Source: a virus
IMG/VR virus record: IMGVR_UViG_3300029391_000001
Span: 19,880 to 83,879 of that record
Reading direction: 5' to 3' (one strand)
DNA length: 64,000 nucleotides
Positions 1,957-32,908 of this stretch are shown here, piece by piece. The notes under the pieces were generated by a model that saw only the letters and a program-made list of their open reading frames with translations, had not been told where the DNA came from and did no database searches. The stretch's first letter is position 1; each line of letters begins with the position of its first letter. The position numbers and the translations under genes were made by a program.

Positions 1957-1966
1957 ATTGTAATAA

Positions 1967-2698
1967 TTAAGACTCAATAGGCCACTAGCCATATTGAGCA
2001 GGGGTAGAAAAAGGTTTCCATTTACCTGCTTGTCTTATTCGTCTAGACATGAAGACGGAAGTAAATGATAAACTAATATCTTGAGGATAATCTGTCCAGG
2101 TATAAGACTATCCATCTGGAGTAGGAGGTAATTTATCAATCCCAGAGGAGGGCTGTCCATTCCAGTAGTAGTTATAGTCATAGGCTTTAATAGAGGTTAC
2201 TTCTGTGGTTTCTCTCCCGTCAGAATCTATATAGAGAGGATCTCCTTTTTTATTCGTTTTTTGTTTATACTCTATAACTGGTGTTATTCCCTCGGTTCTA
2301 GTATATATAGTCTATATAATAGTAGAGACATCACTCGCTACTATTTCATAGATAGTAGTTCCCTATGATTCATCAGCTCCCTAAAAAGTAAATTTAGTTC
2401 TTTTCCATATATATGGATTCTCTTCTGTTGGAAGCTCAAAAGTATCAGACCACTACTTACTTGATAGTTTTATTTCAGATTCATCGGCAGTATTAGCAGG
2501 GAGATAATGTATTTTAATAATAATACTATTAACTGCTTCACTTGAACCGGATAAATCTGATACCTACTTAAATAATTTTTTTAAGTCGTCTTCTACATTT
2601 GATTTAGAACCGGAAGCATTACTTATAATTACTGTCCCATCAGAGATAGGATAAATCTACTACTAATCTTTGTTGTATACAATTGTTCCAGTTGCCAT
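1967..2698 (-). CDS. hypothetical virion protein; contains three consecutive TAG codons
   Basis: ATG 2696-2698 right after portal stop; TAA 1967-1969; 732 nt in frame; plus-strand ctactacta at 2657-2665 = TAG TAG TAG in frame. Confidence 0.4.
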
Positions 2699-2699
2699 A

Positions 2700-4871: not shown

Positions 4872-5091
4872 AACATAAATTATGTTGTTCTGGAGGAAGT
4901 TTAGTAGCGTTATAATACTTAACTCTTTGCAACTTCCTACTTCTTAATTCTTCCTTAATAAATGGCAGAAATTCTTCGTCTGGTAAATCTGCTATTATTA
5001 CTAATGGCATTTCTGACCTATCAAAGTTAAAAGAGACTTTATACCCAACTGGGTCTAAACTCTCAATATCTAGTCCGCCTATATACTCCAT
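4813..5091 (-). CDS. small hypothetical protein overlapping the terminase 3' end and the portal 5' end
   Basis: ORF fragment 4813..5274 frame; TGA 4813-4815; internal Met at 5089-5091 is my guess for the real start. Confidence 0.3.
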   Translation of the reverse strand: MEYIGGLDIESLDPVGYKVSFNFDRSEMPLVIIADLPDEEFLPFIKEELRSRKLQRVKYYNATKLPPEQHNLCYEREGINRQDKRGYCGTCI

Positions 5092-7426
5092 TTTGTACAA
5101 GTCCCTCATATATTCTAGGATCACTTGTTTCAACTCTGTATGGGTCATCATATTCGTTTCTTTGCATATTAAGTTCAGGAGTTTTCTTAGTTGGAATAAC
5201 TCCAAATCTTTTAATTCCTCTCTCGTCGTAATAGTAACCAAAATCTTGGAACTATTCAACTTCTTTCTCCACAAGTACGGGCTGTCTTCCTGATAGCTCT
5301 TGGTCTGCTAACTCAGTCATACCTACAGCGGCTACAATATCATACTTACCCTTATTTTCATCATTATATGCAGTGAACTATTCTAGCATTTCTTCGAACC
5401 ATATAGTATGGCAATAGTCTTCTATAAAGGCGGCTGTTAAATCAGTATGCTATTCGATTATAGTTTTTGTAGCAGGAGTTCCATACTATTTAGTAGTTCC
5501 ATTTCTGACATTAGTTAGAGTAGCTCTTGGGCGCTTCATAAAATAGTTAAGGCATCCTTTTTCTCTAGCCCAAGTAACCATACCCATACGAGTAGCTTCT
5601 ATATTTATTTTACAATTATAATAGCGAGCTAAACACATAGCTATTTTATAGGCTTCTCTGATGTCTCCAGGTCTATCCTTGTACATAGCAACATACTGAG
5701 GGTCATTCATACCAAACGCACGTTTCTTAATCGTTATGCAGAAATCAGACGGGTCTCTGGTTTCCTTAGAAGTCTAATTCGCTCCAATATCAATACCGTC
5801 TATACCTGCTACGTATAAGTCTCGCATCTCTTTATAAACTGGAACTTCAAAATCCTAGCCATTATCTTCTGCCTCCTATCTAAGCTTTTCCATTTGTTCT
5901 TTATATAAGTCAGACCATATTGGATGCTCTAGAATTTTTACTTTGCCATTGCTGTTAGGAATCCATTTAAAACCATCAATATTATCCTAAGTATGTTTAT
6001 TATTTTTGTAAAAATAATCAATATAACCACATTCGGGTCTTGGGCCAATTTGTTTAAGTCTTATATTAGCTATCTATTCGGCAACTAAAATTTTATTAAA
6101 CTTATTAACACCTTCTAGATTAAATGCTTCTTCTGCATTCCAACAACGTTCAGCGCATTTCTTTAGGTAGTCTTCTGGTACAGCTAACAGATTATCTCGC
6201 TCCTCCTATAAGAATTTCTTATATTCCACAGTATTACATACTCCTCTGTGGTCCATAAATTCTGGATTCAAAGATTGTATAAAGTATGGAATAAAGAATC
6301 CACTCTCTATAGTAGTCCCATCCTAAGTCCAATTATGTCTAAATGGAAGAATCTTATATGCTCTTGGATTATAGTAAATCTTTTTTAAGCCCTCTAGAGG
6401 AGCACCCATATCACCGCCAGTACCTCCAAACAACATTGTTCCACGAGGCATACCTTGAACTTCACAAAGTTCTTGACCTTGTACCACAGCGGTATCAAGT
6501 CCAGGCCAGGAACCAGCTTCATCATATATTAATAAATCTACACGGTCTCCACGAATATTAGATGGTTTAGCTCCGTTAATTGCTACAACCTCAGATTTAA
6601 ATCCTACGTCTTCAAACTAACCATTTATTTTGATTTGTTTACCTGATTTCTTTCTCAAATCCTGGTCAATAAGTCGCAATTTAAAAAATCCTCCTCCAGT
6701 ACAGGTATTTAAGAATGTAAGAGCATTATCAAACTTACTAAAGGTACCCTTAAGGAAGGTATCATTAAAGCAAGTAATCATAACCCTACTTCTTCTAATA
6801 ACAGAGTACATACGAGCAGAAAGAGAGGCGTTTATTTCAGAGAATCCAATAGAACGAGCTTTCATTAAAGCTGCGTGCTTGTGTAGCACTCTAGCCATCT
6901 ATAGATAATGAAAGAACATATAATGTGATGCAAAGAATATTGGGAAGTCATTATCAGTACCCTCACCAGAGGCTTTCTGCTAGTCAATAGTAGGTAACTA
7001 ATAGAAATTTAAGAAGAAGTAATTATCTCCAGTAATGGTGTATCCATTAACTGTCATTCCATACTTACATCTTCTATATTGCTCTTTCCAAAATTCGTTG
7101 TACCGCTTACTATCTCTAAGGTAGGGACAGTATTGACCAGTTCGTTTATATACTTCCCTAGTCTCGGTAAACCAATCTGGATTAAAGTCCAATCCATGAG
7201 TTTCGTCAATAGGTCTGTATCCAGTTATTTCATAAGATAAGGTAGGGTCAAATACTTCTATTTTATCTCCTATTTTAACATCCCAATAGTCAGAATTTCT
7301 GACCCTTTCCTCTCTTATTTTCTATACTAATTCTCTAGCTTCTTTAGCATCCTCTTTCTATTCTTTTTCTCTTACCTAATCTACAATATTCTATATTTCT
7401 TCAGGTAATATCTTTTTTCTTGGCAT
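5063..7426 (-). CDS. terL: terminase large subunit; about 20 in-frame TAG codons
   Basis: Hand translation gives LLIYDEAG (Walker B-like), a GIDGIDIG nuclease-like motif, and continuous sequence across every TAG; ATG 7424-7426; TGA 5063-5065; 2364 nt in one frame. Confidence 0.75.
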
Positions 7427-7428
7427 AA

Positions 7429-7989
7429 TTAAAAGTCTCCTGGGTCAAAACCATCCACAGCTCCAGCTCTAACAGTAGATTGTTCAGTAAGTTCTTTCTT
7501 AACCTAGTCTTCTAGTGTTATGAGTTCTTCATGAACTTTGTGAAGGGTAGCCATTTCCTTCATTACTTTTTCAGCCTGGAATACTGGTTTGCCGTTATTA
7601 TCACGCTCATTTAAATCTACAATAGTTTCGAAATAATCAATAAACTAGTCTGCAGCTCTTTTAGCTGCTTCTAGTAATTTTATTGACTTGTTTGAATCTT
7701 GTAACGCTCTGTATTTCCTACAAGCTTCTCTAAATATAGGGTCATTAAATTCCGACTCTGTCAATCCAGAATCGCTAATAGCTTCGTCATGTCGTTCATG
7801 TTCCGAATACTAACTGTATGGACTTTTCCAGTCTATAGCTAAATAAATGTAAGATAGTTCTCTAGTAGCTCTATCCTTTTCTGCAGATTTATCCCTCTAG
7901 ATTAAAGCCTTAAATTCCTTAACTAGCAATATCTCTGGTTCATTTATTTCTAGCTATTTAGTTAAAGTGTTATAGTTAAATACATTCAT
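7429..7989 (-). CDS. putative terminase small subunit, by position only; 5 in-frame TAG
   Basis: Ends TAA 7429-7431, 2 nt before the terL ATG; 561 nt in frame; no recognisable motif. Confidence 0.4.
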
Positions 7990-8026
7990 AATCATTAATC
8001 ATTATCATACACATTAGATAATCTTA

Positions 8027-8605
8027 TTATTTCTTTTTCATTTTGGAACCGCACTTATTGACTTTCATTTTTGAGCCACAAGCGTCTTTCTTAGCATATT
8101 GTTTTCTGTCAGGAACCCATTTTCCTCCCTGGAAATTACCCTTATGTCCTTTATTGGCCATGATTTCCTAATCATTGTATTTATTGATTGATATAGAATC
8201 TCTTGAGGCTTCGTCTCTAGCAGATTTCATATCTTTCTTATACTAAGCTCTTCCAGCCTTAAATTTATCAACTTCATTAGCTTTCTTAGTAACTTTAGTT
8301 CCTTTTTGTGCTTTCTGGCAAGCTTTACAGATTCTACCGCCTTGCTTAAAATATACAAGCTCTTCTCCTTCTGGACATACTCCTTTTAGCTTCTTATAAT
8401 ACTCAAGCTTAGCTCCAAGCCTAGCCATTACTCCTCCTTGCATTTTCCGCATAAATTCCTGATACTTAGCTTTAATGCCGTCTTCACCTAATTGTTCAGC
8501 ATAAGCTTGTAAATCCTATTCAGATTGTACTTGTATTCCCTACGCAGCGGCATCTTGTATTAGATATGCCATAAATGCTTTTTGTAATTCTTTCTAGTTA
8601 GCCAT
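8027..8605 (-). CDS. lysine-rich hypothetical protein; 4 in-frame TAG
   Basis: ATG 8603-8605, TAA 8027-8029, 579 nt in frame; contains ORF fragment 8243..8452. Confidence 0.45.
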
Positions 8606-8760
8606 TACTCTTCTACTTTAATTAAATCCTTAGTATTAAACACTGCTTCCTACATAAGTCCGGAATCAGTAAACCATCTACATCTTAATCCTCGTAATCC
8701 TTGGTTATCTTTAAATAAAGCTGCTTCTCTTCTTAGAACAAGCATAACTGGAGAATGCAT
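8605..8760 (-). CDS. small hypothetical protein
   Basis: ATG 8758-8760; TAA overlaps the next ATG (TAATG); one in-frame TAG. Confidence 0.25.
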
Positions 8761-8815
8761 TACTTTACACTACCGTAAAGTAACACAATCCCCAGGCTTA
8801 AAATAAACTTTTTCA

Positions 8816-9418
8816 TCAATTGTTTCCATACTTCAATTCGTTTCTTCTTTCAGTTAGCTTTTCGTTAACTACAGCCATAATTCTGTTCTCATTAACTACA
8901 ACAAATCCAAACTTGTAGAACGGAACCATGCACTCGCTAGCTATTGTATAGAATACTATATCTCCAGGTTTTAGGAACTCACACTTGTACCCAACCTCAA
9001 TAACAGTACCCACTTTAATAAATTGTTGTTCTTCTTCTATTTCTCCTGTTTCATTAGATTTATATGTTGGAGCAAATCCACCTAAGTCTGTAATTAATCC
9101 ACTCTTAGTAGTTTTAATTTTTTGAAACGGATTTTGTTCGAAAGGTTTAATTAATGCATACCCATACATGGGCATAATTTCTACACCATTCATATCCTCA
9201 GATAATGATTTGGCGTAAGATTCTAAAGCTGCATTATGTTTAGAGAATTTATCTTCTAGTTCATCTACTGCTGTATTGAATCTTTCCTGTTTTTCTCTTA
9301 ATAAAGTTTTATCTGCAGCTTCTCCATTTACTATAAGGTGCTGTCCTGTACCTTCCATACCAGTTATAGCTAGTGCTAGTTTCTCATTACTGTTCAATTC
9401 TGTTCTTAAAGTTTCCAT
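8816..9418 (-). CDS. hypothetical protein; C-terminal half GroES/Gp31-like (KPGDIVFY)
   Basis: Intact ORF ATG..TGA; GroES-like motif pattern in C-terminal half. Confidence 0.4.
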   Translation of the reverse strand: METLRTELNSNEKLALAITGMEGTGQHLIVNGEAADKTLLREKQERFNTAVDELEDKFSKHNAALESYAKSLSEDMNGVEIMPMYGYALIKPFEQNPFQKIKTTKSGLITDLGGFAPTYKSNETGEIEEEQQFIKVGTVIEVGYKCEFLKPGDIVFYTIASECMVPFYKFGFVVVNENRIMAVVNEKLTERRNELKYGNN

Positions 9419-9426
9419 AATTCATT

Positions 9427-9765
9427 TTACCATTTACATAAATCACAATGTTCATCTTCTATTCTAGTTTTGTTCTCTAGTATACAACCACACTCCTCAC
9501 ATACTTCTCCAAATGAAGTCTGTAATTTATGAGGACAAGTATTACAAATATTTAATCTTGTGGTTGCTAAATCTTGATTAATTCCAAATATATGGAAATA
9601 TATACTCTTCAATATTACTAAAGGTTTAGTAAATATTGCTTTAATCCATTTCTTTGACATCTTTTCAGTAGGTTCTTGAGTCATAAGTATATAAGCCTTA
9701 GTAGGGTTAGCCATTACTGGAGTCCCATATAGTAATAAATTATTTACCATTTCTTCGCAGGACAA
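9427..9765 (-). CDS. Cys-rich zinc-ribbon protein
   Basis: CxxC...CxxC pairs. Confidence 0.45.
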   Translation of the reverse strand: MSCEEMVNNLLLYGTPVMANPTKAYILMTQEPTEKMSKKWIKAIFTKPLVILKSIYFHIFGINQDLATTRLNICNTCPHKLQTSFGEVCEECGCILENKTRIEDEHCDLCKW

Positions 9766-9959
9766 TGCTTCTTCTCATTAGGTATCTTTAATTCCAGTAG
9801 ACATCCGCATCCTTTTATATATCCTTCTTTTGGACCAATACTTATGTCATTGTTTTCTGGATTTAAATACAACTGTCCATTACATATTGCATCTTCTTGA
9901 TTACATATTGGACAGCGTCTACATATTTTCCATCTTTCTTCTATTTCCTCTAGTGTCAT
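9744..9959 (-). CDS. Cys-rich zinc-ribbon protein
   Basis: CRRCPIC...CxxC motifs. Confidence 0.4.
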   Translation of the reverse strand: MTLEEIEERWKICRRCPICNQEDAICNGQLYLNPENNDISIGPKEGYIKGCGCLLELKIPNEKKHCPAKKW

Positions 9960-9961
9960 AA

Positions 9962-10876
9962 TTAATATTCAATACGTTGACGTTTCTTTTTATTTTCTGC
10001 CAATATAGATTCTTTCTTGTAAAAAGAAAGCATTCTTATTACTTCATCTTTTAAATATGGTAAGTGATATACTGTCATGTTGTCACTGTGGTCGAAGTGT
10101 ACTAAAACTAAGTCTTCAATTTCAAATTCTGGGTTTTTCTTCTGAATCATCCAGGCGTAAGTACTTAGCTGAAGGGTATAATGCCAATAATTAACATCAT
10201 CTAAATTATTTAGAGGATACTTCATCTTAACTGATGTCTTAGTTTTAGAATTAAAGAAACTCTTTGTTTCTATTTTTTTATTAGTCTTCCAGTCGCCAAT
10301 AATTATCTTATTACCTCTTTTAACTAATAAGTCAATTTGTCCAGCTATTCTTAGTTTTCCGTCCTCAGATACTCTAGAGATTAGATACTCAGGATATACC
10401 CCATTCTCCAAATCTAGATTGTTATAGTCTTTTATACACTCAAACTTACCACCTATTTGATATTTACTTAGATCTATATCCTTCTTCTTTTTGTAAAAAG
10501 AGTTTTCCAAATCTGCATGGATTCTAGTTCCTCTCTCGCAAGAGTTTCTGTTCTCCATATCCCATGCATCTAAGATAGCTTGTTGTTCTTTATTAAACTC
10601 GTCTTCTGTAATGTTATGAAGTTCAAGTAGAACTTTGTCAAATTTCTTAGTATTCAGCAGAGATTTTTTCTCGATAGCCCAATCTTCTTTAGGTAGAAGT
10701 TTCTCTAGTGCTTTATAAGCTGACCAGAACTCTTTATCAAAGGGTTGGGTGAAAGAATGAATTAAAGTCGTTACAGATATAAATTTCTGTTCTGGCTTTG
10801 TAACATCATAATAAATATGAGCTTCCTCTTCGAAAGCTATGTTCCCATTTTGTTTTGTAATTTTACTTTTGTCCAT
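9962..10876 (-). CDS. PD-(D/E)XK family nuclease
   Basis: GQIDLLVKRGNKIIIGDWKT (D..E.K motif). Confidence 0.55.
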   Translation of the reverse strand: MDKSKITKQNGNIAFEEEAHIYYDVTKPEQKFISVTTLIHSFTQPFDKEFWSAYKALEKLLPKEDWAIEKKSLLNTKKFDKVLLELHNITEDEFNKEQQAILDAWDMENRNSCERGTRIHADLENSFYKKKKDIDLSKYQIGGKFECIKDYNNLDLENGVYPEYLISRVSEDGKLRIAGQIDLLVKRGNKIIIGDWKTNKKIETKSFFNSKTKTSVKMKYPLNNLDDVNYWHYTLQLSTYAWMIQKKNPEFEIEDLVLVHFDHSDNMTVYHLPYLKDEVIRMLSFYKKESILAENKKKRQRIEY

Positions 10877-10990
10877 TAGTCATAATTCATTTAATCATTT
10901 ATCACATTTATCTATATTTATTTGATACTTTTCAAGTATATTAATATTCTTTGTAAGATACAAATCAATAAATAATACATTATATTAAAA

Positions 10991-11333
10991 ATGTCTAATA
11001 TGACAAAAATGGTAACATTTGAATGTCCAATTTTTAAAAACGGGTCAGGCATTCATATTAAAGAGAAAAACAAAGGTAAATTTACTGCCTCTGCTAAGGC
11101 TGCAGGATAGTCTGTACAGGAACATGCTAAATCTGTACTAAACAATCCTAATGCTACTCCTCTTCAGAAGAAGCGTGCTAACTTTGCTAGAAACGTGGCT
11201 AAATGGAAACACGAAGATGGAGCTAAGATACATAAACCAAGTGGACATAGATCTATTCTAGATAATGGATGGATTCCTACTACTAGATTAAAGAAAGGAA
11301 ATTATGGATTAATTAAAACAAGAAAGCAATGAG
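10991..11333 (+). CDS. hypothetical protein; one in-frame TAG
   Basis: ATG..TGA in one frame verified codon by codon; TAG at 11108-11110. Confidence 0.45.
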
Positions 11334-11407
11334 CGCTGTAGTTAAATTAATTAAAGAATTTATACTTAAGATATATCTTTATTTACTATTTATATTTAAT
11401 AAGTAAT

Positions 11408-11599
11408 ATGGACTATAATAGAGCAACTCTTTATGCGGCTACTGGTCGTACTTTATTACTCCCTGGCTGGAAAGGGTATTTTTATTGGGACTATACTAAG
11501 AATGAATTAAATTTTAGAAATGGAGACTATCATTTAGATAACAAATAGCTCAAGGAGAAAGGAGTTATGGAACGTAATGATTGGTATTATATAATATGA
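11408..11599 (+). CDS. small hypothetical protein; one in-frame TAG
   Basis: Frame-consistent ATG..TGA. Confidence 0.3.
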
Positions 11600-11988
11600 T
11601 AATTAAAAATAATATTATACCGTTTGGAGGTTATAAAGTAATTAATCTGTTTGGATTAATATTTACTAAGTCGGATTTGACTGATGAGGATAAGAATCAC
11701 GAGAATATCCATTCAGTATAGATTTTAGAATGTGCAATAGCGTTTGCAATACTTATATCTATATTATTTGGATTAGAATGGGTATGGTTAGCTATTCCAT
11801 CTTTCTATATCTGGTATGGATTAGAGTATTTAATTATACGACTATTAAGACTTAAAGATTCTCAAAATGATTGCTACAGAGATGTAAGCTTTGAAGAAGA
11901 AGCTTATATGAATGAAGACAATTTACAGTATCTAGAAGGATAGAGAAAGATGTTTTCATGGATAAAATATCTAAAAGTTAATGCATAA
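11596..11988 (+). CDS. membrane protein with HEXXH motif, putative zincin-like metallopeptidase; two in-frame TAG
   Basis: HENIH motif plus hydrophobic helices; ATGA overlap with the upstream gene. Confidence 0.4.
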
Positions 11989-12032
11989 CAAAATAGGCGA
12001 ACTTAGACAATTAAGTCTAGGCTCGCCTATTT

Positions 12033-12245
12033 TTATTTACTATTATACGTACAAGTGATTCTGTTTGGCTCTTCCCACCAAGGTTTATCTGAAAGTGGAG
12101 TTCTGATGCTATTGGGCCAATTTATAATTGGAGTAGTTTCCTCTACTATAGCCTCCATTATTTTAAATAATGTATCCAAGTCTAGCTCTGGAAGCAGCTC
12201 ATGAATATTAGTTATTGTTTTCTTATAATTTATCATACCCTTCAA
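12033..12245 (-). CDS. hypothetical protein
   Basis: ORF track. Confidence 0.35.
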   Translation of the reverse strand: MKGMINYKKTITNIHELLPELDLDTLFKIMEAIVEETTPIINWPNSIRTPLSDKPWWEEPNRITCTYNSK

Positions 12246-12591
12246 AAGTGTCGTTAATAATTGCTTTCTCTATTGTAGTATCTTTATATAAACCATGTTG
12301 TAGTATATTTCTTACTTGATGGTCTACTTGATTCCATATATCTAATAATATAGAAGAATCATCTGAAAGACTATATTGTGGATAGCTAGCCCTTAAACTG
12401 CTAAGTACTTTGCCATTAATGTAAATGTCAAATACGAAATTTTTTATATCATCTGTAGTTTCTCCAGAAATTCCTGCAGCTCTTTGTAAAAGTTTAAGAG
12501 CCTTTTCATATACTTCCCTTTCTTCACGCTCAATTCTTGAAGAATTGAACATCATCATATTTGCGGCTACTGACATATTAGTACGATACAC
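12223..12591 (-). CDS. hypothetical protein
   Basis: ORF track. Confidence 0.4.
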   Translation of the reverse strand: MYRTNMSVAANMMMFNSSRIEREEREVYEKALKLLQRAAGISGETTDDIKNFVFDIYINGKVLSSLRASYPQYSLSDDSSILLDIWNQVDHQVRNILQHGLYKDTTIEKAIINDTFEGYDKL

Positions 12592-12740
12592 TTAGCTTAT
12601 TTAAGTTGTCTAGATAATCTAAGAACCATTGTTCGTTTTGTTTTCCTTCTTCTACAATAGTATTAATTAAAGATTCTGTAGCTAATAGTGTTATTTCTGC
12701 TAGCTCCTCTAATTCCGATTTAGTAAGTTCGTTATATTTT

Positions 12741-13055
12741 TCAATCAAGTTTAACATAATCCATCCAGTCTTTTATATATGATTTACATTCTTCCAAATC
12801 TGGATAGATACTTGTTATAGAGCATCCAGTTTTCGGATTTTTAAAGTGGTGCATCTTAGCCTCTTCTTTTTTCTCCTCTTCTGTATTTCTATTTAATGTT
12901 CTATTCCAATAGTTGTACTTTTCATCTAACATTTCCATATTACATTCCTCTAATATTTTCATATTAGGGTTATTCATTATCTTGTCGTATTTTCTCTTTA
13001 AATTAGAGACTTTGACAACATCATTTCCATTTAATACAACTGCACACTGTTTCAT
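12741..13055 (-). CDS. hypothetical protein
   Basis: ORF track. Confidence 0.4.
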   Translation of the reverse strand: MKQCAVVLNGNDVVKVSNLKRKYDKIMNNPNMKILEECNMEMLDEKYNYWNRTLNRNTEEEKKEEAKMHHFKNPKTGCSITSIYPDLEECKSYIKDWMDYVKLD

Positions 13056-13279
13056 TTCAATACCTTATAAGTACATATCTTGCCTATCTGTTTTCCTTGA
13101 ATTGTTATTTGCGGAAGAAAATAGCAGGCTTGATTCTCAAATTCTTGAGGTACAAAGATATAATCAAACTTACTTCCAACTACCTTCTCACAAACTTTAT
13201 TCCAATCGTCTCCCTCTTCTATAATAAGAGTTTTAGCTCCTGTTGGAGTTACTACATAATTCTCATTTAATTTTATCAT
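13052..13279 (-). CDS. hypothetical protein (ORF trimmed to internal Met)
   Basis: The 5' extension in the ORF track is translation of the suppressor tRNA T-arm. Confidence 0.35.
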   Translation of the reverse strand: MIKLNENYVVTPTGAKTLIIEEGDDWNKVCEKVVGSKFDYIFVPQEFENQACYFLPQITIQGKQIGKICTYKVLK

Positions 13280-13296
13280 AACTATTAATTTTGGCG

Positions 13297-13368
13297 TTGC
13301 CCTACTAGGATTCGAACCCAGACTAAATGATTTAGAGTCATCTGTGCTGACCATTACACCATAGGGCA
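13297..13368 (-). tRNA. suppressor tRNA, anticodon CUA (reads TAG); Gln-type body
   Basis: Full cloverleaf: acceptor tgcccta/tagggca (U1:A72), D-arm gtgt/gcac, anticodon stem gatga/tcatt, loop cuCUAaa, T-arm ctggg-ttcgaat-cctag. Nearly identical in architecture to tRNA-Gln(TTG) at 27771. Confidence 0.8.
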
Positions 13369-13506
13369 GTAACTTATTTCTCTTTTAGAGATTTATTTTC
13401 TGCTGCCAATTTCTCTAGTTCTTTTCTTAATTGTTCATTTTCGTGAAATAAAGCCTGCATAGTAGCGTTGATATTAGCTAATAGTATTCTCATTTGAGCA
13501 ACCTAT

Positions 13507-13908
13507 TCATACATAAGCTTTCAGTTGTTCAATTCTCTTTTTAGCTATATCTGACAATGCCATTTTAAATTTAGCAATACCAGCTCTTACTGTTTCTAAC
13601 TTGCCGCTTTCTAAGCATTCTTGTATTTTATGAACTTCAAGCTCTCCTAGATATTCGCATACATCTATAAATAAATCATCATCTAGAGATTCTAAATATT
13701 TCTGGAATTGGTCTACCTCTTTATTAGCTAGACAGCTTTCTTCCTTCTATCTTTCATAAGATATTAATAAGAACAAAGAATCGTCGGTAGATTCGGACTT
13801 AATAGTTAGCCCATTACCAGACATATAATATTCTTGATTCGTATTAATTGCCTCAACTAGCTATTTAAACTAGTCCTAATTTAACAATGTTTCTAAGTCT
13901 GTAATCAT
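13507..13908 (-). CDS. hypothetical protein; 4 in-frame TAG
   Basis: Hand-translated ATG 13906-13908 to TGA 13507-13509; 402 nt in frame. Confidence 0.4.
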
Positions 13909-14070
13909 AATTGTTTTCTTTTTAGTTATATACAACAATAACCTCCGAAAAGTTAAACGCAAAGTTAAAAAATTCTAATTCAAATATTATACATATTTTA
14001 TATATTAAGGGGAAAGTCGGTACAGGTACTTTATATAAATAGCCCCCTGGGGTTATTATAAATTCCGACT

Positions 14071-14649
14071 TTAAAAATTGGTGATGTTATTATATAGGTC
14101 AGAAATTAGCTTTTTAAATTCTTCTGTAGACATATCATTTTTCATGGCATTTACTCTATTGGTTGTAATTACAACATTTCCTTCTATATATCCTAAATTA
14201 CTATCTATTCTATCTAAGGAATAGTCTTCGTAATTTTCTGGCACCAATCCAGTGTAATAGTCTTTATACTCTTGTTTTAATAGTAGTTCTTTTATATATT
14301 CTAACGTTAGATTGTATTCTAATACTTTACTTCTTCTTCTCTTACACTGGGAAGACTTCTTTAATAGAAATTGAGCTATCATATTATCTTGAGTTTTTTC
14401 ATTAGATTCTAATTTCTTAATATTCTTATTTGTTTTGTATCCAAATTCTGTCTTGATTGCATTTTCTGGTTTTAGTCCTTTCACTATATTAAATTCGCCA
14501 ATTATATTAAATAAACTATCCTCTTCTAATGTCTCTAAGATTCCATTTACTGAACGTAAAAAATTCCATCCATTTTCGTTCCCATTTACTCTCCTAGCCA
14601 TTTCTTTCTTAGAAAGGTCTTCTGTTATATTTTGTTCTACACATCTCAA
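14071..14649 (-). CDS. HNH-like endonuclease (weak)
   Basis: SLDRID...GY.EGN...N..K pattern. Confidence 0.35.
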   Translation of the reverse strand: MRCVEQNITEDLSKKEMARRVNGNENGWNFLRSVNGILETLEEDSLFNIIGEFNIVKGLKPENAIKTEFGYKTNKNIKKLESNEKTQDNMIAQFLLKKSSQCKRRRSKVLEYNLTLEYIKELLLKQEYKDYYTGLVPENYEDYSLDRIDSNLGYIEGNVVITTNRVNAMKNDMSTEEFKKLISDLYNNITNF

Positions 14650-14912
14650 TAAGAAATCTTTCTGAGAATTAGAAAGTCTAATATAAATTCTGGACAGTCT
14701 ATATGTTTTAATATTTTATATCTATTATAAAATCCGTTTATTGTGTGGTTTTCTATATATTTCAGTTCTACTAAATCTTTTAACATCTGCGGAATGTTTT
14801 TAGTAGCAAATCCAAATTTATGATTTAATTCTGACCCACTAAAATGAGAAAATTCTCCGTTTTCTTCATAGGCGTTTATTACCGCCAGTAGTACATTTAA
14901 ATTTCTTTTCAT
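14646..14912 (-). CDS. hypothetical protein
   Basis: ORF track. Confidence 0.35.
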   Translation of the reverse strand: MKRNLNVLLAVINAYEENGEFSHFSGSELNHKFGFATKNIPQMLKDLVELKYIENHTINGFYNRYKILKHIDCPEFILDFLILRKISY

Positions 14913-15168
14913 ATTTATTCAGTTTAATGTTATTACTTATCTATACAAGAATATCGGAGGGTCAAAGTTAAAATTATCAAAAATACTAACTCCAGCATAA
15001 TGTCAGTATTTTACATTAAGACGAAAATGAGGATAGGTATTACTTATGAAAAACTTACATAGTGGCTGTAGCGCGTGCCCACAACCCCTTTAGTCCCCCC
15101 CTGTATATTGATATAAAACTAAAACAAAAACAACTCACAGTATTAACAAATTAAAAATTTTTAGTATT

Positions 15169-15615
15169 ATGACACTCGAAGAATTGAAAGACCAGAACGT
15201 AAGCGCAGTAGAAAGAGCTAAGGCAGTAGTATCAGCATTGGGACTGAAAGGTGATGAACGCTCAGTTGTTGTCGGCTTGTCAAAGGGCGATAAGTTTAAG
15301 TTGGTAGCAATGAACAAGGTAGATTTGCCTGCAAATGCCAACCAACCAAACCAAAGCAACTTTACACCAATCACATTTAGCACTGACACAGGTGCAACCA
15401 TTGGTGCAAAACACTTTGCGGGCGTAGAAATCGACGACGATGCTCCGGCAATCGGTTCAACTCCGTTGGAAAATGCCGCTTTCCTTGTTTATTGCATTGA
15501 CCACAATGTAACATTTAAGGTAGACAAAAAGGTAACGGAAGACATTGAAGCTACCACTGACCGCCAAGCCTACAAGAAAAATACTTACAAGCTGGTAGTG
15601 GAAGACTATGATTAA
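15169..15615 (+). CDS. hypothetical protein; first plus-strand gene after a divergent intergenic region
   Basis: ORF track; 256-nt AT-rich gap upstream. Confidence 0.5.
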   Translation: MTLEELKDQNVSAVERAKAVVSALGLKGDERSVVVGLSKGDKFKLVAMNKVDLPANANQPNQSNFTPITFSTDTGATIGAKHFAGVEIDDDAPAIGSTPLENAAFLVYCIDHNVTFKVDKKVTEDIEATTDRQAYKKNTYKLVVEDYD

Positions 15616-16628
15616 AAGATTGGGGAGAAATCCCCTTTCTTTTACATACAAATAATCTTTGTAGAAATGGACATAAGAAAAAAGTTTAAGACTATAAAGT
15701 GTTTGTATAATTGGGGCATAATCTATGACCCAAAGACTAATGAAAAGTTAAATTTCAAATCCAAACGTGTTTATTGCGTAACTTCTTGGGCTTGGATTAT
15801 GACCTATCAAAAGTCAGAAGAAGATATTCCTGAGATAATTAGGATAGTCTTTGTAGATTAACTCTAAGGTACTATGAGTTTTAAATAAAGTGCCCACATG
15901 AACCCCATCATCGGAACGTTGGTTAACGGGGAAAACAACATTACAACAAATCAAATCAAAGTTTTTGTTTAGTTTTAGGATTATATCTGGCAGCTTGGAA
16001 AGACAAGCAAAATCTTTATACCTATCTGCTAATAGGTTTAGTGTTCAACGCGAACATTCGGTAAAAGAAGGAAATTGTACACTCAAAAAGACCCTCAATT
16101 TCCGGACTTTTTCCGATTTTCAAAAAATCCGCCAGAGTAGGAGTTATATAGCTCACACTCTCTATGGACATTATTTAGTATTTAGCCTATAAAAAGGCAA
16201 CAAAAAGCGAGGCTACGCAGAAGAGCCTAACACCAAAAATAACTGCTACAAATTCTATGTGCATATTCGCAAACTTGAGCACTATAGGATTTAGGTTGAG
16301 CTGTAAGGATTGGTCACTTATAGCAATATTATGAGTACTGCTGATATGTCAGTGACCGTACATATCACATATAAAATATGTTATACAATTATGTTAGAAG
16401 TTGCCAGGTCTAAGAAGCCTGATTAAAATCTCTAGATAGTAAGAGAGAACCTCATAAGGGTTCATTTTCCATCTCGAACCTATTCGCAAGTTTATAGACT
16501 AGCTATCTATAAATTTAGTGATGGAATACCAACGAAGTTGGTGTTCCCGCTTTGCGAACGTTGATAACGTCCTCAGCATGGAAAACTGAGAAATAATCTC
16601 CTATCTTATTCTAGATATAGATAGGATT

Positions 16629-16685
16629 TCCCTACTGGTGCGTCTCCCGCTGGAGAAGATTCTGGTTCAAGTCCAGAGTAGGGAA
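16629..16685 (+). ncRNA. tRNA-like minihelix (acceptor stem, tetraloop hairpin, T-arm; no D or anticodon arm)
   Basis: tccctac/gtaggga 7-bp acceptor; T-arm tctgg-ttcaagt-ccaga; internal hairpin tctcc-cgct-ggaga. Confidence 0.4.
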
Positions 16686-16827
16686 CTACTAAGTTGCAAT
16701 ATTCATATTATTGTCGGACCATAATGGGTATGCCCTGAGACTATGCAGTTGTTGTGAAATAACTCAAAGTATTGTGGCACAGGAAGGTCTAGTCGTCACT
16801 TTGCTCATTTTATTAATTTTCATTTTG

Positions 16828-16852
16828 ACTAAAAGGCACAGCGGTGCCTTTA
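16828..16852. terminator. hairpin aaaggcac-agcg-gtgccttt, possible bidirectional terminator
   Basis: Perfect 8-bp stem with a T/A run. Confidence 0.35.
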
Positions 16853-17271
16853 CTCTCAAGATAAGAACAACCTTTACGTGGTTTGAGAGATAAGTAAGCT
16901 ACTTCAGCTGAAACTAATAGTTCTAGTAACAATTAAAAATATTTACCATGAAAGAGAAAATGAAACGTATTGAGGAGTACACTAAAGCAATGAGAGAGCT
17001 ACTAGATAAACTCTTGGAGCAAAACCCAGATCTATGATGAAATATGGGGAGCTTATGTTGCAGGCATGAAGGTGTTCTTATAACTCCTATTCTAGCTGAG
17101 AATTAAAACTAGCTGGCTTTTATTACTCTTTGTAAAAGCTCAAAAATTAAAAAGAGAAATCTAGAACGGTAAGCCCGGTTCTCTTCATCCTTTAACTGAT
17201 TTAGAAGTAAAACAGAAATTAGTTGGCAGCCTGGAATAGACAGGCATTTTTAACTAAAAATTATAGAAAAA

Positions 17272-17736
17272 ATGAACACAGTAGAAATTAACAGCTTAAA
17301 GAAGTATTCAGAGTTTACAACAACATTTCGTATTCCATTCAAAAAGGCAAATGATGTAGAAGCTAAATGCTATACGCCTATGGATGTAATTGACGCTTGG
17401 AAAGAAGTATGCATACAGGCGTTAGAAATGAGAATGGAGGCGTGTCTGTTAATGTTGCTCAAGAACAGAGATCGAGTGATAGAATCTGACGAAGAATGTG
17501 TTGTTTTCAGAAAACCCAACGGACATCTTCATTTCTTCAACCACTCCAGCTTTCAGGCTATGGAAGCTCTAGTAGTAGCTCTTGTAGTAGAGGGTCCTAT
17601 AGTACTCGACTCCCTCCTAGTAGACCTATTATTGAAGGCTTTGTACTGGATTCCAGAAAAGTTGAAAAAAGATCATCAAGAATTTGGATTTGGAGAATTA
17701 ATAAGCTGTTTGACCTGCCTAGCCTACAAAGCTTAG
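17272..17736 (+). CDS. hypothetical protein
   Basis: ORF track. Confidence 0.45.
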   Translation: MNTVEINSLKKYSEFTTTFRIPFKKANDVEAKCYTPMDVIDAWKEVCIQALEMRMEACLLMLLKNRDRVIESDEECVVFRKPNGHLHFFNHSSFQAMEALVVALVVEGPIVLDSLLVDLLLKALYWIPEKLKKDHQEFGFGELISCLTCLAYKA

Positions 17737-17899
17737 GCTGAATAAAAAACTCAATAACTTCCCAAGACATTGAGGGCACCAGTTTCTTATGAATAAATAC
17801 TCTGAAAAGCCTATATGGGCAGGACAGAGCCTCGAAAGTCTTAGACCAGAGAGATAGTAAGTTTTAGGTGTAAAATGCGATTAATAAAAGAAAAAGATT

Positions 17900-18151
17900 A
17901 TGGAACAGTATTTAGATGCAAAAATTAAGAGATTTACTCAAAAGCAATTATTCAAGAAAATAACTAAAGTTAAAACTATGCTAGGTTTAGGAGGATTACA
18001 TCCTGAGAAATACCTAGAAGTTGTACCCGAACATAAAAATTGTGTCCTAGTTGACTTCAATCCAGCAGATGCATTAGTAAGAAGAAATTCTCTTATTGGA
18101 GAGTTTGATTTACTTACTAATTCTCCAGCGGAGAGACGAGAGAACAATTGA
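17900..18151 (+). CDS. hypothetical protein
   Basis: ORF track. Confidence 0.4.
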   Translation: MEQYLDAKIKRFTQKQLFKKITKVKTMLGLGGLHPEKYLEVVPEHKNCVLVDFNPADALVRRNSLIGEFDLLTNSPAERRENN

Positions 18152-18341
18152 GTGGTTGGCAAAGAATTTCCCAGAACTTGATATTCCAAGAAATTACGTG
18201 TTTATAAATGATACAAGATGTAAGGAGATTGGATATCGTCAGTATGTTAAACGTATGTATGATCCAACTAGAGACAGATTCTTAGACATATACAGAGATT
18301 CTGGAGATAACATGATTACCGGACTAATTAAAATCCTCTGA
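18096..18341 (+). CDS. hypothetical protein
   Basis: ORF track. Confidence 0.35.
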   Translation: MESLIYLLILQRRDERTIEWLAKNFPELDIPRNYVFINDTRCKEIGYRQYVKRMYDPTRDRFLDIYRDSGDNMITGLIKIL

Positions 18342-18406
18342 TGAGTCTTTGAAAATTAAGACGAAACTACCCATCTTTGGGTAGTCAGGATTAAAAAGAA
18401 AAAGAA

Positions 18407-18607
18407 ATGAGAAAGTACAACAGATTAAATTGCGATTCAACTGTTCGCGCAAGATTTATAGATACTTGGGGACGAGTAATAACTTTAGTCGGAACCCATG
18501 CCTTCGAATATGCCATTCACATAGAAGGAGTAAGAACAGTTACTGAAACATTTGAGAATGGAACATTAGCAAGAAAAAGATTTAACGAATTAAAAAAGAA
18601 ACCATGA
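18407..18607 (+). CDS. hypothetical protein
   Basis: ORF track. Confidence 0.4.
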   Translation: MRKYNRLNCDSTVRARFIDTWGRVITLVGTHAFEYAIHIEGVRTVTETFENGTLARKRFNELKKKP

Positions 18608-18837
18608 GAAAGAGATTTAAGATGAGCAGAATTGCTTCATCAGACAACTATGAGTTGTCAAGAAAGATTCGCGCAATGTACCTCCAAAGATTTCACGAAG
18701 AGAACATAGAAGTGATTACAGAGATTTCATCTACATTAGTAATTAAAGAACAAAAGTATATTCGGGTATTTGGGAAGTTAATTCCTGTTTCCGAAGAAGA
18801 ATTGAGAATACATAACACTTTAATATCTGTGAGATGA
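18604..18837 (+). CDS. hypothetical protein
   Basis: ORF track; ATGA overlap. Confidence 0.4.
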   Translation: MRKRFKMSRIASSDNYELSRKIRAMYLQRFHEENIEVITEISSTLVIKEQKYIRVFGKLIPVSEEELRIHNTLISVR

Positions 18838-19076
18838 TGGAAGATTTGTTAACAATAGTAAGATGGGCAATAACATTGCCTGTTTGGTTGCTAGAACATA
18901 TACTTAAGGCTATGACCTTAATAGTTCTGGTATTGGTAATCATCGTCATGGCGGTATTATATCCGCTATTTCGGTCTATCTGGCGTAAGACAGGACAGTC
19001 TACGATTTTTAAGTATGCAACAAAATGGAGAGGAAACTATCCGCTAACCAAAAAAGTATTTGACTTATGGCAATGA
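18834..19076 (+). CDS. small membrane protein
   Basis: Two hydrophobic helices. Confidence 0.4.
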   Translation: MMEDLLTIVRWAITLPVWLLEHILKAMTLIVLVLVIIVMAVLYPLFRSIWRKTGQSTIFKYATKWRGNYPLTKKVFDLWQ

Positions 19077-19353
19077 TGAGAAGAATTACCGAAATAAACG
19101 GTGAGATAATTGTGGTAGAAACTATGATTATCGTAGGAGAGATAGTATTGATTACAGTACAAATAAATGGAGAACTAGTTCGCTATGAAATATTATCTGT
19201 TAGACAGTTATGGGAAGGTCGTTAGGGCCTTCTCAAGCTGGTCTGAGGCTAACAAATTTCGTATAACTAGAAATAGACCAGATTGGAGGATTGTATGACA
19301 TACATCGTTGTATTTATAATATTAATCATCATGTGGAAAATGATTGAAGACGA

Positions 19354-20313
19354 ATGAAAACAGTATTAACCCATACAGGAAAAATCTATGTTGATACAGA
19401 ACATAGACTAGAGTTCTTAACTGTAGGAGACTATGGTAAGGAGAACAACATCAAGGCTGATTTCTTAGGTCTAACTAAGGAAATCAATGGAGTAGAGAAT
19501 ACAGCAGTAGACCTAAGCAAGAAATGGGTAGCAACTATTTCAACTCAGAAAGGCTGTCCTATGCATTGTAAATTCTGTGATGTTCCCAAGTTTGGATTCT
19601 ATGGAAATGCTTCTATAGAAGATATGGATAGACAAATCCGAACTATTATAGAAGGCGAAAGTGTCAGAGAAACAGACAGGTTTAATGTACACTTTGCTAG
19701 AATGGGAGAACCAACATGGAATGATAATGTATTAGCATTTGGACTTGCTCTCAGAGGTATGGTTAAGTCTGCAGGGTTAATAGCTAAAACTGTTCATCCA
19801 GTAGTTTCCACGATGCTTCCGAAAGCAAATAATAAGCTTGGAAACTTCTTACAGGTTTGGTGTAGCATAAAAAATGAGTTCTACAATGGAGAAGCAGGCT
19901 TGCAGTTTTCAATCAATTCTACAGACGATGAACAGAGAAATGAGCTGTTTGACTCTAAGAGTTTGTCACTAGCACAAATTTCTCGGTTGGCTGACGAGTT
20001 ACCAATGCCGGTAGGCAGAAAGTATACTCTAAACTTTCCAGTAACCTCACAAACTATTCTCGATGCGAAGGAATTGTCAAAGCTATTTGATAGGGAGAAA
20101 TTTATTGTTAAAATCACTCCTATACATGAAACAGCTTCTGCTATAGAGAATGGTTTCCAGGTAACTGGATACTCTGATTATGACGTTTATCGTCGCTTTG
20201 AACAACCTTTATTGAAAGAAGGTTGGGATGTTATAGTGTTTGTTCCATCTAAGGAGGAAGATTCTGACCGAATTACTTGTGGGAACGCACTAATCTCTGA
20301 AGAGAAGATTTAA
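19354..20313 (+). CDS. radical SAM domain protein
   Basis: CPMHCKFC = CxxxCxxC cluster. Confidence 0.55.
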   Translation: MKTVLTHTGKIYVDTEHRLEFLTVGDYGKENNIKADFLGLTKEINGVENTAVDLSKKWVATISTQKGCPMHCKFCDVPKFGFYGNASIEDMDRQIRTIIEGESVRETDRFNVHFARMGEPTWNDNVLAFGLALRGMVKSAGLIAKTVHPVVSTMLPKANNKLGNFLQVWCSIKNEFYNGEAGLQFSINSTDDEQRNELFDSKSLSLAQISRLADELPMPVGRKYTLNFPVTSQTILDAKELSKLFDREKFIVKITPIHETASAIENGFQVTGYSDYDVYRRFEQPLLKEGWDVIVFVPSKEEDSDRITCGNALISEEKI

Positions 20314-20525: not shown

Positions 20526-20705
20526 CCAACTTTAAATAATTAAGCTATGATAAATGTAGACGAATTAAGAAACAAAAAGTAGCTCGGAGAGCGTATAGCC
20601 ATTGGTGAATTATCAAAATATGGATTAGATATTTTATTACCAATGTCTGACAATCTACCATTTGATTTTGTTATATATTATAATAACAAGTTTTACAGAA
20701 CTTAG

Positions 20706-20918
20706 GTGAAAACTACTGCGAGTAAAACTGTAAATAACTCGTTGAACTTTAGTTTAACAAGTAATAATTATAACAAAGGGACCGTTCACAAATACAACGA
20801 GGATGAAATAGATATTATGATATGTTGCGACCTTCATAACATCTATATATTTCCAGAATGTGATGTTGCTAATAGAAATTCTATTACTATTAGGGAGGAA
20901 CCTCCAGCTAATAATTAG
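20706..20918 (+). CDS. hypothetical protein
   Basis: ORF track. Confidence 0.35.
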   Translation: MKTTASKTVNNSLNFSLTSNNYNKGTVHKYNEDEIDIMICCDLHNIYIFPECDVANRNSITIREEPPANN

Positions 20919-21071
20919 ACAAAAGGTATAAACTTTGCAAAAGATTGCATCATATCTATAGAAAGATTAAATTATACTTTCTCTAAGATAGAGAAATAAT
21001 TCCCTATTAATAGGGAAGTCTTTTTCTTTTATTCTGCTAGTAAACATTTGTTGTGAAACACGTGTTTGCAT

Positions 21072-21349: not shown

Positions 21350-21433
21350 GGGATAGCGCCAACGATGGAGAGTTGGGACGGACTGTAAATCCGTTGCCTT
21401 TAGGCTTAGTAGGTTCGAATCCTACCTATCCCA
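21350..21433 (+). tRNA. tRNA-Tyr(GTA), type II
   Basis: Long variable arm; loop cuGUAaa. Confidence 0.7.
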
Positions 21434-21460
21434 CAATTATGTAAAATAACTTACCAAAAG

Positions 21461-22037: not shown

Positions 22038-22121
22038 GGGATTGTAACCGGTAATTGGTAGCCGCGCAGACTGTAAATCTGCTCTCTTTTGAGACTGGAG
22101 GTTCGAGTCCTCCCAATCCCA
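22038..22121 (+). tRNA. second type II tRNA with GTA anticodon (Tyr-like); D-arm irregular
   Basis: Acceptor gggattg/caatccc, T-arm ggagg-ttcgagt-cctcc, loop cuGUAaa, long variable arm; I could not pair the D-stem cleanly. Confidence 0.5.
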
Positions 22122-22139
22122 CACTAATTTCAATATATT

Positions 22140-27770: not shown

Positions 27771-27842
27771 TGGGCTATGGTGTAATGGTAGTCACATCAG
27801 ATTTTGGTTCTGAGAGTCCAGGTTCGAGTCCTGGTAGCCCAA
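27771..27842 (+). tRNA. tRNA-Gln(TTG)
   Basis: U1:A72; loop uuUUGgu. Confidence 0.7.
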
Positions 27843-32272: not shown

Positions 32273-32908
32273 ATGGCATATATTTATTGCATTACAAATT
32301 TAATTAATAGCAAGCGATACGTAGGAAAAACTACTACTTCTATAGAAGAGCGCTGGAAGGAACATTGTTATGACTTTTAGAAAGAAAGATGCAACAAAAG
32401 ACCTTTATATGATGCCATGAATAAGTATGGTGTTGAGAACTTTATGATAGAGGAATTGGAATATGTAGATAGTAACTCTGAATTATCTGAAAGAGAAATC
32501 TATTGGATAAAAGAGCTAGGAACTTATGGTTCTAATGGGTACAATGCCTCTAAAGGAGGAGATGGCACTATTCTATACAATCATAGTGAAATTGTAGAAT
32601 TAGCTAGATTGGGATATACTAGTTCTTAGATACAAGAAAAAATAGGGTGCTGTAAAGACACTATTTACAAAGTTTTGAAGGCAAATAATATAAAAATTAG
32701 AAAAAGTAACGCAAAGTTAATTGCTTAGTATGACTTAGCAGGTAATTTTATACAGGTATTCTTTGGTTCCAGAGAAGCTTAGGAATGGTTAATTAATAAC
32801 GGAATTACTGACAATAAATCTGCATAGAGTCATATTATAGGATGCTGTAAGAATAAAACCAAATCATAGTATGGCTACATTTGGAAATATCTTCCAGAGC
32901 CTATTTAA
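32273..32908 (+). CDS. GIY-YIG homing endonuclease with C-terminal NUMOD-like DNA-binding region; 5 in-frame TAG
   Basis: YIYCITN...KRYVGKT GIY-YIG motif; verified codon by codon to TAA 32906-32908; AQYDL matches, as I recall, a conserved Y-Q-YDL segment in GIY-YIG relatives when TAG = Q. Confidence 0.7.

Follow-up and report, generated by a model that had tools for sequence, protein, structure and literature searches.

Which element allows TAG codons to be read through in the late genes of a crAss-like phage, and which amino acid is inserted there? We addressed this question in a 64,000-nucleotide stretch of IMG/VR virus record IMGVR_UViG_3300029391_000001 (positions 19,880 to 83,879 of that record), hereafter the window, which carries a tRNA gene with a CUA anticodon at 13297-13368 on the minus strand. 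An initial annotation, made from the sequence alone, had described this gene as an amber suppressor built on a tRNA-Gln scaffold and had argued that TAG means Gln. Our results support that description: the in-frame TAGs are sense codons, alignments of seven late genes place Gln opposite them, and matching phage tRNAs are annotated as tRNA-Gln. The gene is very probably a functional amber-suppressor tRNA(CUA) of a ~185-kb Zeta-group crAss-like phage, reading TAG as Gln.

Detection and structure of the suppressor tRNA gene

In the 64-kb window, ARAGORN returned a minus-strand tRNA at 13296-13368 whose anticodon is CTA. The Rfam tRNA model RF00005 matched 13297-13368 of the same strand (72 nt) over its full length (model positions 1-71; 66.3 bits, E = 3.2e-12), which is one of the better tRNA scores in the window and clears the gathering threshold of 29 bits. 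Both programs, ARAGORN having been proposed as a check in the initial annotation, agree on the strand and anticodon of the minus-strand cloverleaf with loop cuCUAaa described there, as does the sequence when read directly. No other intact CUA tRNA was detected in the window by either program.

As read, the gene runs TGCCCTA TG GTGT AATGGTCA GCAC A GATGA CTCTAAA TCATT in its first part and TAGT CTGGG TTCGAAT CCTAG TAGGGCA A in its second, and does not encode CCA. It is characterized by a U1:A72 pair, as reported initially, by G2:C71, G10 and discriminator A73, and by a 7-nt anticodon loop (C32 U33 C34 U35 A36 A37 A38) in which U33 precedes CUA. The variable region consists of 4 nt (TAGT), and not of the 3 nt first described. 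Minimum-free-energy folding of the isolated transcript did not return the cloverleaf; as this failure is usual for unmodified tRNA sequences, we relied instead on the covariance model and on covariation.

The label 'Pyl' or 'tRNA-Pyl' that ARAGORN gives to the gene is the program's default name for CTA, not an identity. The body of tRNA-Pyl has a small D-loop without G18G19, a 6-bp anticodon stem and no T54-Psi55-C56. The suppressor, in contrast, has a normal 8-nt D-loop containing GG, a 5-bp anticodon stem and a normal T-loop (TTCGAAT), and a tRNA-Pyl identity was rejected.

TAG as a sense codon in the late genes

Under the standard code, positions 1-8.6 kb of the window are nearly free of open reading frames (ORFs). 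Long minus-strand ORFs arose only by read-through of TAG, whereas read-through of TGA or TAA yielded none. The leftward genes recovered in this way include a crAss-like large terminase subunit (TerL), which was 23-30% identical to Crassvirales TerL in tblastn searches, and a portal protein (Table 1). Minus-strand genes contain 86 TAG codons versus 88 CAA and 33 CAG, and none of them is terminated by TAG. On the plus strand, TAA or TGA terminates 46 of the 49 confident ORFs; each of the other three ends in TAG, with a back-up TAA 3-9 codons later. The leftward late genes thus use TAG as a sense codon.

The plus strand, which is in the standard code from ~15.2 kb onward, encodes a DnaB-like helicase, a Toprim primase, an SNF2/ResIII helicase, an AAA ATPase and NAMPT; neither a release factor nor an aminoacyl-tRNA synthetase was found among the ten largest ORFs. 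Exceptions to the restriction of TAG to late genes were a GIY-YIG homing endonuclease gene, a PD-(D/E)XK endonuclease gene and a three-gene cassette inside the leftward block; the mobile endonuclease genes with TAG may be expressed only once the code has switched. The late module needs to be annotated with TAG as Gln (code 15), since otherwise the terminase, the portal protein and their neighbours fall into fragments.

Amino acid specified by TAG

Database homologs of TerL carried, at first look, Gln at most TAG columns. This evidence was rejected as circular, because the genes of these homologs could not be translated under table 11 and the aligned codons were often themselves TAG. Proteins of this phage clade in a large public collection (P0001-P0240) are predicted with TAG translated as Gln, so any meaning of TAG taken from them is circular, and the analysis was redone from DNA. 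The result is a clean, non-circular demonstration that the TAG=Gln translation of this clade is already built into public protein databases.

The set of relatives comprised 80 IMG/VR loci and four assembly loci encoding terminases 97% to 42% identical to that of the window. Loci were translated afresh with TAG kept as X, and seven late genes were aligned; relatives were considered recoded when the terminase contained many TAGs, and standard-code when it was free of TAG. Opposite the TAGs of the window, Gln represented 799 of the 1576 residues encoded by sense codons in recoded relatives (Glu, 208), and 359 of the 965 residues in 21 standard-code relatives (Glu, 168). With substitution frequencies estimated from the same seven-gene alignments, the log-likelihood per residue was -2.11 for Gln versus -3.57 for the runner-up in recoded relatives, and -2.32 for Gln versus -2.62 for Glu in standard-code relatives. 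Gln was the top residue at TAG in each recoded subclade. Moreover, TAG in the window occupies TerL columns that are invariant Gln in standard-code relatives, at positions 451 (Gln in 19 of 19) and 143 (17 of 19); TerL position 647 and GIY-YIG position 152 are also invariant-Gln columns occupied by TAG. Judged from these alignments, no other residue fits TAG in the late genes of the window nearly as well as Gln.

The initial annotation had also based its reading on an 'AQYDL' segment of the GIY-YIG endonuclease, and this argument held up: the TAG of 'AXYDL' was aligned with Gln in 120 of 120 homologs. At the DNA level, the codon at this site is CAA in two homologs (L213 and L215, one of them wholly TAG-free) and TAG in a third (L216). 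Several other TAGs of this gene align with Ala or Lys and not with Gln, which suggests that the copy in the window may be decaying. TerL of standard-code Crassvirales and Fipvunavirus was also aligned, but at 23-28% identity these distant sequences gave too much noise for an amino-acid call, and the alignment was set aside.

Scaffold and identity elements

The initial annotation had counted on two Gln tRNAs for alignment with the suppressor; ARAGORN and Rfam detected one in the window, tRNA-Gln(UUG). A second tRNA-Gln was sought there and not found, the weak extra Rfam matches being Ala-, Ile- or Ser-like or degenerate. The suppressor and tRNA-Gln(UUG) have in common U1:A72, G2:C71, A73, the T-loop and the D-arm string TGGTGTAATGGT, whereas their anticodon stems are unrelated. 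The close match first described therefore holds for the U1:A72 pair and the D-arm but not for the molecule as a whole: tRNA-Gln(UUG) is the nearest tRNA in the window, with 51 of 72-73 positions identical (~70%), barely above tRNA-Thr (69%).

Among the 120 GTDB matches listed for the D-arm motif, 75 were tRNA-His and 33 were tRNA-Gln. The tRNA-His genes with this D-arm belonged to Candidate Phyla Radiation (CPR) bacteria, Pelagibacter and archaea, whereas the Bacteroidales matches were tRNA-Gln genes with U1:A72 and A73 (Prevotella, Prevotellamassilia, Alloprevotella, Bacteroidaceae). The D-arm was consequently rejected as a universal diagnostic of Gln, and is an argument in the Bacteroidales and phage context only. 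Among the best 25 matches in GenBank phages, 15 were annotated as tRNA-Gln and six as tRNA-Trp, and the true CUG or UUG tRNA-Gln genes were 76-83% identical to the suppressor; the true tRNA-Gln(CUG) of Streptomyces phage LuckySocke was 81% identical.

The identity set of E. coli glutaminyl-tRNA synthetase (GlnRS) associated with Jahn, Rogers and Soll reportedly comprises U1:A72, G2:C71, G3:C70, G73, G10, U35, A37 and U38. The comparison with GlnRS identity elements, which the initial annotation had suggested, gave a divided result: the suppressor has the weak U1:A72 pair, G10, U35 and A37, but C3:G70 stands in place of G3:C70, A73 in place of G73 and A38 in place of U38. A36 necessarily replaces G36. 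A73 also occurs in the phage tRNA-Gln(UUG) and in the Bacteroidales tRNA-Gln genes found, and the E. coli G73 rule may therefore not hold in the host.

In terms of sequence the scaffold is Gln-like, and the points that tell against a Gln origin are as follows. Besides the three missing E. coli elements and the tRNA-His majority among the D-arm matches, the suppressor only modestly resembles the tRNA-Gln(UUG) of the window, whole-sequence identity to tRNA-Gln is only 67-70% in many comparisons, and a CPR tRNA-His also reaches ~70%. G2:C71 is not conserved, being replaced by C2:G71 in orthologs of the L044 type. Finally, a Bacillus-phage tRNA-Trp(CCA) is 82% similar to the suppressor, with a loop one change away from CUCUAAA; Trp is the nearest rival scaffold, but the codon alignments give it no support.

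These points bear on an alternative in which the suppressor is functional but charged with another residue (Glu, Trp, His, Lys or Tyr), so that TAG would not be Gln. We consider this improbable. In its favour, besides the tRNA-His and tRNA-Trp resemblances and the GIY-YIG TAGs opposite Ala or Lys, TerL alone gave a near-tie against standard-code relatives under BLOSUM (Glu, 29.7; Gln, 27.3), and two of its TAG columns are invariant Glu in these relatives. This near-tie required the larger seven-gene data set, in which the empirical likelihood settled the choice in favour of Gln: Gln led clearly in recoded and in standard-code relatives, His, Glu and Lys were far behind, Trp and Tyr were outside the six best-scoring residues listed, and TAG fills the four invariant-Gln columns of TerL and GIY-YIG. 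A tRNA-His identity is further opposed by the determinants of histidyl-tRNA synthetase, G-1 and C73, both of which are absent from the suppressor (C at position -1, A73). In E. coli, CUA suppressors are charged by GlnRS, including su+7, which is derived from tRNA-Trp, and this too argues against another residue. Published proteomics also found Gln at TAG in a 191-kb crAss-like phage (PMC9523058).

Conservation and covariation in relatives

The identical suppressor sequence was found in 14 related loci. Of the 40 TAG-recoded relatives, 31 carried an identical or orthologous gene 5-10 kb upstream of TerL and on its strand, as against none of the 18 standard-code relatives (Fisher p = 1e-8, with kinship between phages ignored). 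The CUA anticodon and the D-arm are fixed across orthologs, and loop positions 37-38 vary in a few (CUCUAAC in L052 and L083). The stems differ: the acceptor stem occurs as TGCCCTA/TAGGGCA or as TCTCTTA/TGAGAGA, and the anticodon stem is GATGA/TCATT, GAAGA/TCTTT or GGTGG/CCACT. When the orthologs were aligned on the cloverleaf, 99.4% of the cells were paired and 10 of the 21 pairs had changed on both sides, a level reached by 0 of 500 shuffles; slid controls paired at most 61%. The first pair (1:72) is U:A in seven of the eight sequences of this alignment and U:G in one. Identity in 14 loci, compensatory stem changes across clades and a conserved loop together point to purifying selection on the suppressor.

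Some orthologs of the suppressor (L027 103-192, L030 2218-2307, L035 303-391) exhibited an insertion of ~17 nt forming a long variable arm, for a total of 89-90 nt, with CCA encoded in two of them. Long variable arms of the type II kind normally mark Ser, Leu or Tyr tRNAs. In the phages with these long-armed genes, TAG still aligned mostly with Gln (31%, the top residue).

A second alternative is that the gene is not the main decoder, TAG being read by a host tRNA, another phage tRNA or some other mechanism while the gene is dispensable or decaying. Nine of the 40 recoded relatives have no CUA tRNA within 10 kb of TerL, and the second suppressor paralog seen in relatives has decayed in the window, which implies that such tRNA genes can be lost. 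An imperfect agreement between recoding and detectable suppressors is also noted by Yutin et al. (PMC7886860). Set against this, the signs of purifying selection, the absence of the gene from 18 of 18 standard-code relatives and its position as the sole intact CUA tRNA of the window make the alternative highly unlikely.

The weakest alternative takes the in-frame TAGs for real termination codons, produced by pseudogenes, assembly error or gene fragmentation, and the presence of a CUA tRNA for a coincidence. It is effectively refuted: the region 1-8600, nearly ORF-free under the standard code, could look like decay, but the ORFs of 787 and 723 aa hold 19 and 28 TAGs with no TGA or TAA, which is impossible by chance, the same genes are full-length and TAG-rich, at partly different positions, in dozens of independent assemblies, and the TAG columns align with conserved Gln.

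Genomic setting and proposed mechanism

ARAGORN detected 21 tRNAs in the window, 20 of which lie on the plus strand at 20376-41697. The suppressor is alone on the minus strand, in agreement with its initial description as isolated and far from the main array.

Table 1. Features of the window that bear on the suppressor tRNA and on TAG decoding.
Feature	Position	Strand	In-frame TAG	Basis or remark
Amber-suppressor tRNA, anticodon CUA, loop CUCUAAA	13297..13368	-		ARAGORN, Rfam, direct sequence reading
Small ORF, 46-codon form	13374..13511	-	1	Ends 5 nt before tRNA 5' end
75-aa ORF	13052..13279	-	0	Starts 17 nt past tRNA 3' end; no Pfam match
133-aa ORF	13507..13908	-	4	Directly upstream of tRNA, same strand; no Pfam match
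Late ORF, partial	1-1069	-	8	TAG read-through
Late ORF	1225-1992	-	4	TAG read-through
Late ORF	1967-2698	-	10	TAG read-through
Portal protein, 723 aa	2700..4871	-	28	L001 homolog: weak PF16510 P22_portal match
Large terminase subunit (crAss-like), 787 aa	5063..7426	-	19	tblastn to Crassvirales TerL, codon-level alignments
Late ORF	7429-7995	-	5	TAG read-through
Late ORF	8027-8605	-	5	TAG read-through
Late ORF	8605-8829	-	2	TAG read-through
Three-gene cassette	10991-11988	+	1-2 per gene	Inside leftward block
RAGATH-14 RNA (Rfam RF03145), intact	16396-16602	+		156.6 bits
Decayed second suppressor tRNA, D-arm deleted, anticodon loop destroyed	16627..16687	+		blastn and sequence comparison with L011
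PD-(D/E)XK endonuclease	20547..20999	+	3	Pfam PF11645, 65.9 bits; between tRNA-Lys and tRNA-Pro
Phage tRNA-Gln(UUG), in-window comparator	27771..27842	+		ARAGORN; sequence comparison
GIY-YIG homing endonuclease, 'AXYDL' site	32273..32908	+	6	Pfam PF01541, 48.7 bits; inside tRNA array

The small ORFs that flank the gene at 5 nt and 17 nt indicate that the tRNA is embedded in a polycistronic leftward unit. An equivalent of the upstream one is found in a related locus (L001), where a 46-aa gene at 2276-2416 lies 5 nt ahead of a tRNA starting at 2422. The leftward unit begins ~1.6 kb from the tRNA, at a divergent region near 14.9-15.2 kb, and the suppressor is its third to fourth gene. A scan for sigma-70 promoters and terminators around the tRNA returned nothing exceeding shuffles, which leaves the timing of expression without sequence support and weakens that part of the reading; the sigma-70 model is probably unsuited to promoters of Bacteroidota or of a phage RNA polymerase.

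In the mechanism that we propose, the unmodified machinery of the host would translate the early and replication genes, which are in the standard code. The suppressor would be co-transcribed near the head of the leftward unit. As spacers of only 5 nt and 17 nt separate it from the neighbouring small ORFs, host RNase P and 3' processing would cut it out of the polycistronic transcript, and the host CCA-adding enzyme would presumably complete its 3' end. Charging with Gln would fall to the host GlnRS: the weak U1:A72 pair, G10 and U35 seem compatible with this enzyme, as does the body, which is of the kind usual in tRNA-Gln of phages and Bacteroidales. The A36-A37-A38 motif is the substrate of MiaA, and i6A37 strengthens the reading of U-starting codons; A37 of the suppressor is thus likely to be modified to i6A37. 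Once charged, the suppressor would outcompete RF1 at UAG, giving full-length terminase, portal protein and other TAG-rich late proteins, as well as the TAG-bearing homing endonucleases. Late-protein output may thereby be coupled to suppressor accumulation, as in the late-gene timing model set out by Borges et al. (2021/22; bioRxiv 10.1101/2021.08.26.457843), who also argue, with reference to E. coli glutaminylation work, that the host GlnRS charges CUA suppressors.

Second suppressor-type tRNA and RAGATH RNAs

Relatives of the window carry a second tRNA of 71 nt, on the opposite strand and 2.4-3.4 kb farther upstream than the main suppressor (L059 116-186, L011 69-139, L012 1700-1771, L021 2174-2243 and L032 2092-2164, all on the minus strand of the locus). 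Most relatives have CUA as its anticodon; L059 has CUG, as in an ordinary tRNA-Gln, and L011 has UUA, of the ochre-suppressor type. Its loop is damaged in L021 and L032. These anticodon changes separate phages with terminase identities of at least 87%, and give the impression of a Gln-type tRNA whose anticodon is still switching.

In relatives, the second tRNA lies ~27-30 nt downstream of a RAGATH-14 RNA (RF03145, 157-185 bits), and RAGATH-14-tRNA units were located at L011 70-372, L012 1701-1971, L016 1598-1890 and L023 965-1236 (all minus strand). The window retains an intact RAGATH-14 beside the decayed tRNA (Table 1). In one clade, a RAGATH-1 hammerhead ribozyme (L044 772-850, minus strand; 59.6 bits) was observed in place of the RAGATH-14 and tRNA unit. 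The adjoining RAGATH-14 may have a processing or regulatory role; a literature search on RAGATH-14 found nothing. There is a slight chance that the code switch is run by a modular, fast-evolving cassette and not by a single tRNA, with the operon-embedded tRNA(CUA) as the sole decoder in the window. If RAGATH-14 did control suppressor release, it would represent a new RNA-based timer for genetic-code switching.

Comparison with known systems

The Zeta group was defined by Yutin et al. (2021; PMC7886860), whose account describes the largest genomes of the crAss-like assemblage (145-192 kb for one family), with many introns, inteins and tRNAs. TAG-to-Gln or TGA-to-Trp reassignment is reported there, mostly in late genes and with phage suppressor tRNAs, along with code switches between close relatives and suppressors derived from tRNA-Gln by anticodon mutation. 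The close relatives of the 64-kb window have genomes of 177-193 kb, versus ~100 kb for typical crAss-like phages. The window and the Zeta-group phages of Yutin et al. and Borges et al. are alike in a crAss-like TerL, late-only TAG reassignment, a phage CUA tRNA, many tRNAs, introns and homing endonucleases, and code switching among close relatives, with no essential difference between them. The window fits the published description in every tested respect, so that the finding is correct and already known. The placement of the tRNA as third to fourth leftward gene and the decayed second suppressor beside RAGATH-14 are not described in the available parts of these two accounts.

Using metaproteomics, Peters et al. 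(2022; PMC9523058) demonstrated that the 191-kb crAss-like phage L2_026_000M1_scaffold_35 has Gln at TAG in its late structural proteins. This phage resembles that of the window in size class, crAss-like affiliation, TAG-to-Gln late structural genes and annotated suppressor tRNAs, but the proteomic evidence belongs to L2_026_000M1_scaffold_35 and not to the phage of the window.

Among Crassvirales, tRNAs annotated as tRNA-Gln in cr7_1, cr124_1, cr60_1 and cr53_1 (NC_055895, NC_055899, NC_055891 and NC_055889) were 83-86% identical to the suppressor throughout, and the two that were read (cr7_1 and cr60_1) have the same acceptor start TGCCCTA, D-arm and CUA anticodon. These phages are ~100-kb Suoliviridae with TerL only ~25-30% identical to that of the window, and the anticodon stems differ by compensatory changes. 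By these matches, one suppressor lineage is common to crAss-like families.

A bona fide tRNA-Gln(CUG), encoded by gene 117 of Mycobacterium phage Wildcat, was 83% identical to the suppressor and has the same 5' acceptor strand, TGCCCTA. Its loop, CUCUGAA, differs from CUCUAAA at position 36 only (G36A). Unlike the suppressor, it reads CAG and not UAG, has G73 and not A73, and comes from a phage whose host belongs to an unrelated phylum.

The E. coli amber suppressor supE (glnV/glnX) has a tRNA-Gln body and a CUA anticodon and inserts Gln at UAG. It differs from a host tRNA by one mutated base and suppresses weakly, and E. coli GlnRS tolerates its A36 because U35 and the acceptor features stay. 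The suppressor of the window, in contrast, has a re-tuned loop (C32, A37, A38), lacks G3:C70, G73 and U38, and serves hundreds of sense TAG codons within a programmed code switch.

The value of the analysis lies in a correct annotation and in three side leads: the anticodon-switching paralogs, the association with RAGATH-14 and the TAG-bearing homing endonucleases.

Other observations

Within the tRNA array, a tRNA-Cys(GCA) of 86 nt with a long extra arm was found at 32168-32253 (plus strand), in addition to a normal tRNA-Cys at 30447-30521, and two different tRNA-Tyr(GTA) genes were located at 21350-21434 and 22038-22122 (plus strand). Three weak Rfam tRNA matches (33979-34051, 28743-28819 and 34264-34319, plus strand; 30-37 bits), which default ARAGORN did not call, look degenerate; one of them is Ala(UGC)-like.

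A megablast search of window positions 1-20000 against GenBank phages returned only conserved snippets of ~50 nt, at 17.7-18.4 kb, that are common to crAss-like genomes. Two segments (17741-17795 and 18330-18367, plus strand; ~40-55 nt) were 96-100% identical to unannotated intergenic sequence in many ~100-kb Crassvirales that are otherwise unrelated to the window (cr113_1, cr115_1, cr53_1, cr131_1 and others), and could represent a conserved regulatory or RNA element common to crAss-like families.

Finally, terminase genes were interrupted in several relatives, namely L005 (MT835539.1; 19911-24332), L043, L059 and L075, with pieces in different frames or a span 0.3-1.2 kb longer than usual. 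One database TerL homolog (P0003, 1131 aa) contains intein/Hint and LAGLIDADG Pfam domains. These interruptions fit the abundance of introns and inteins that is reported for Zeta-group phages.

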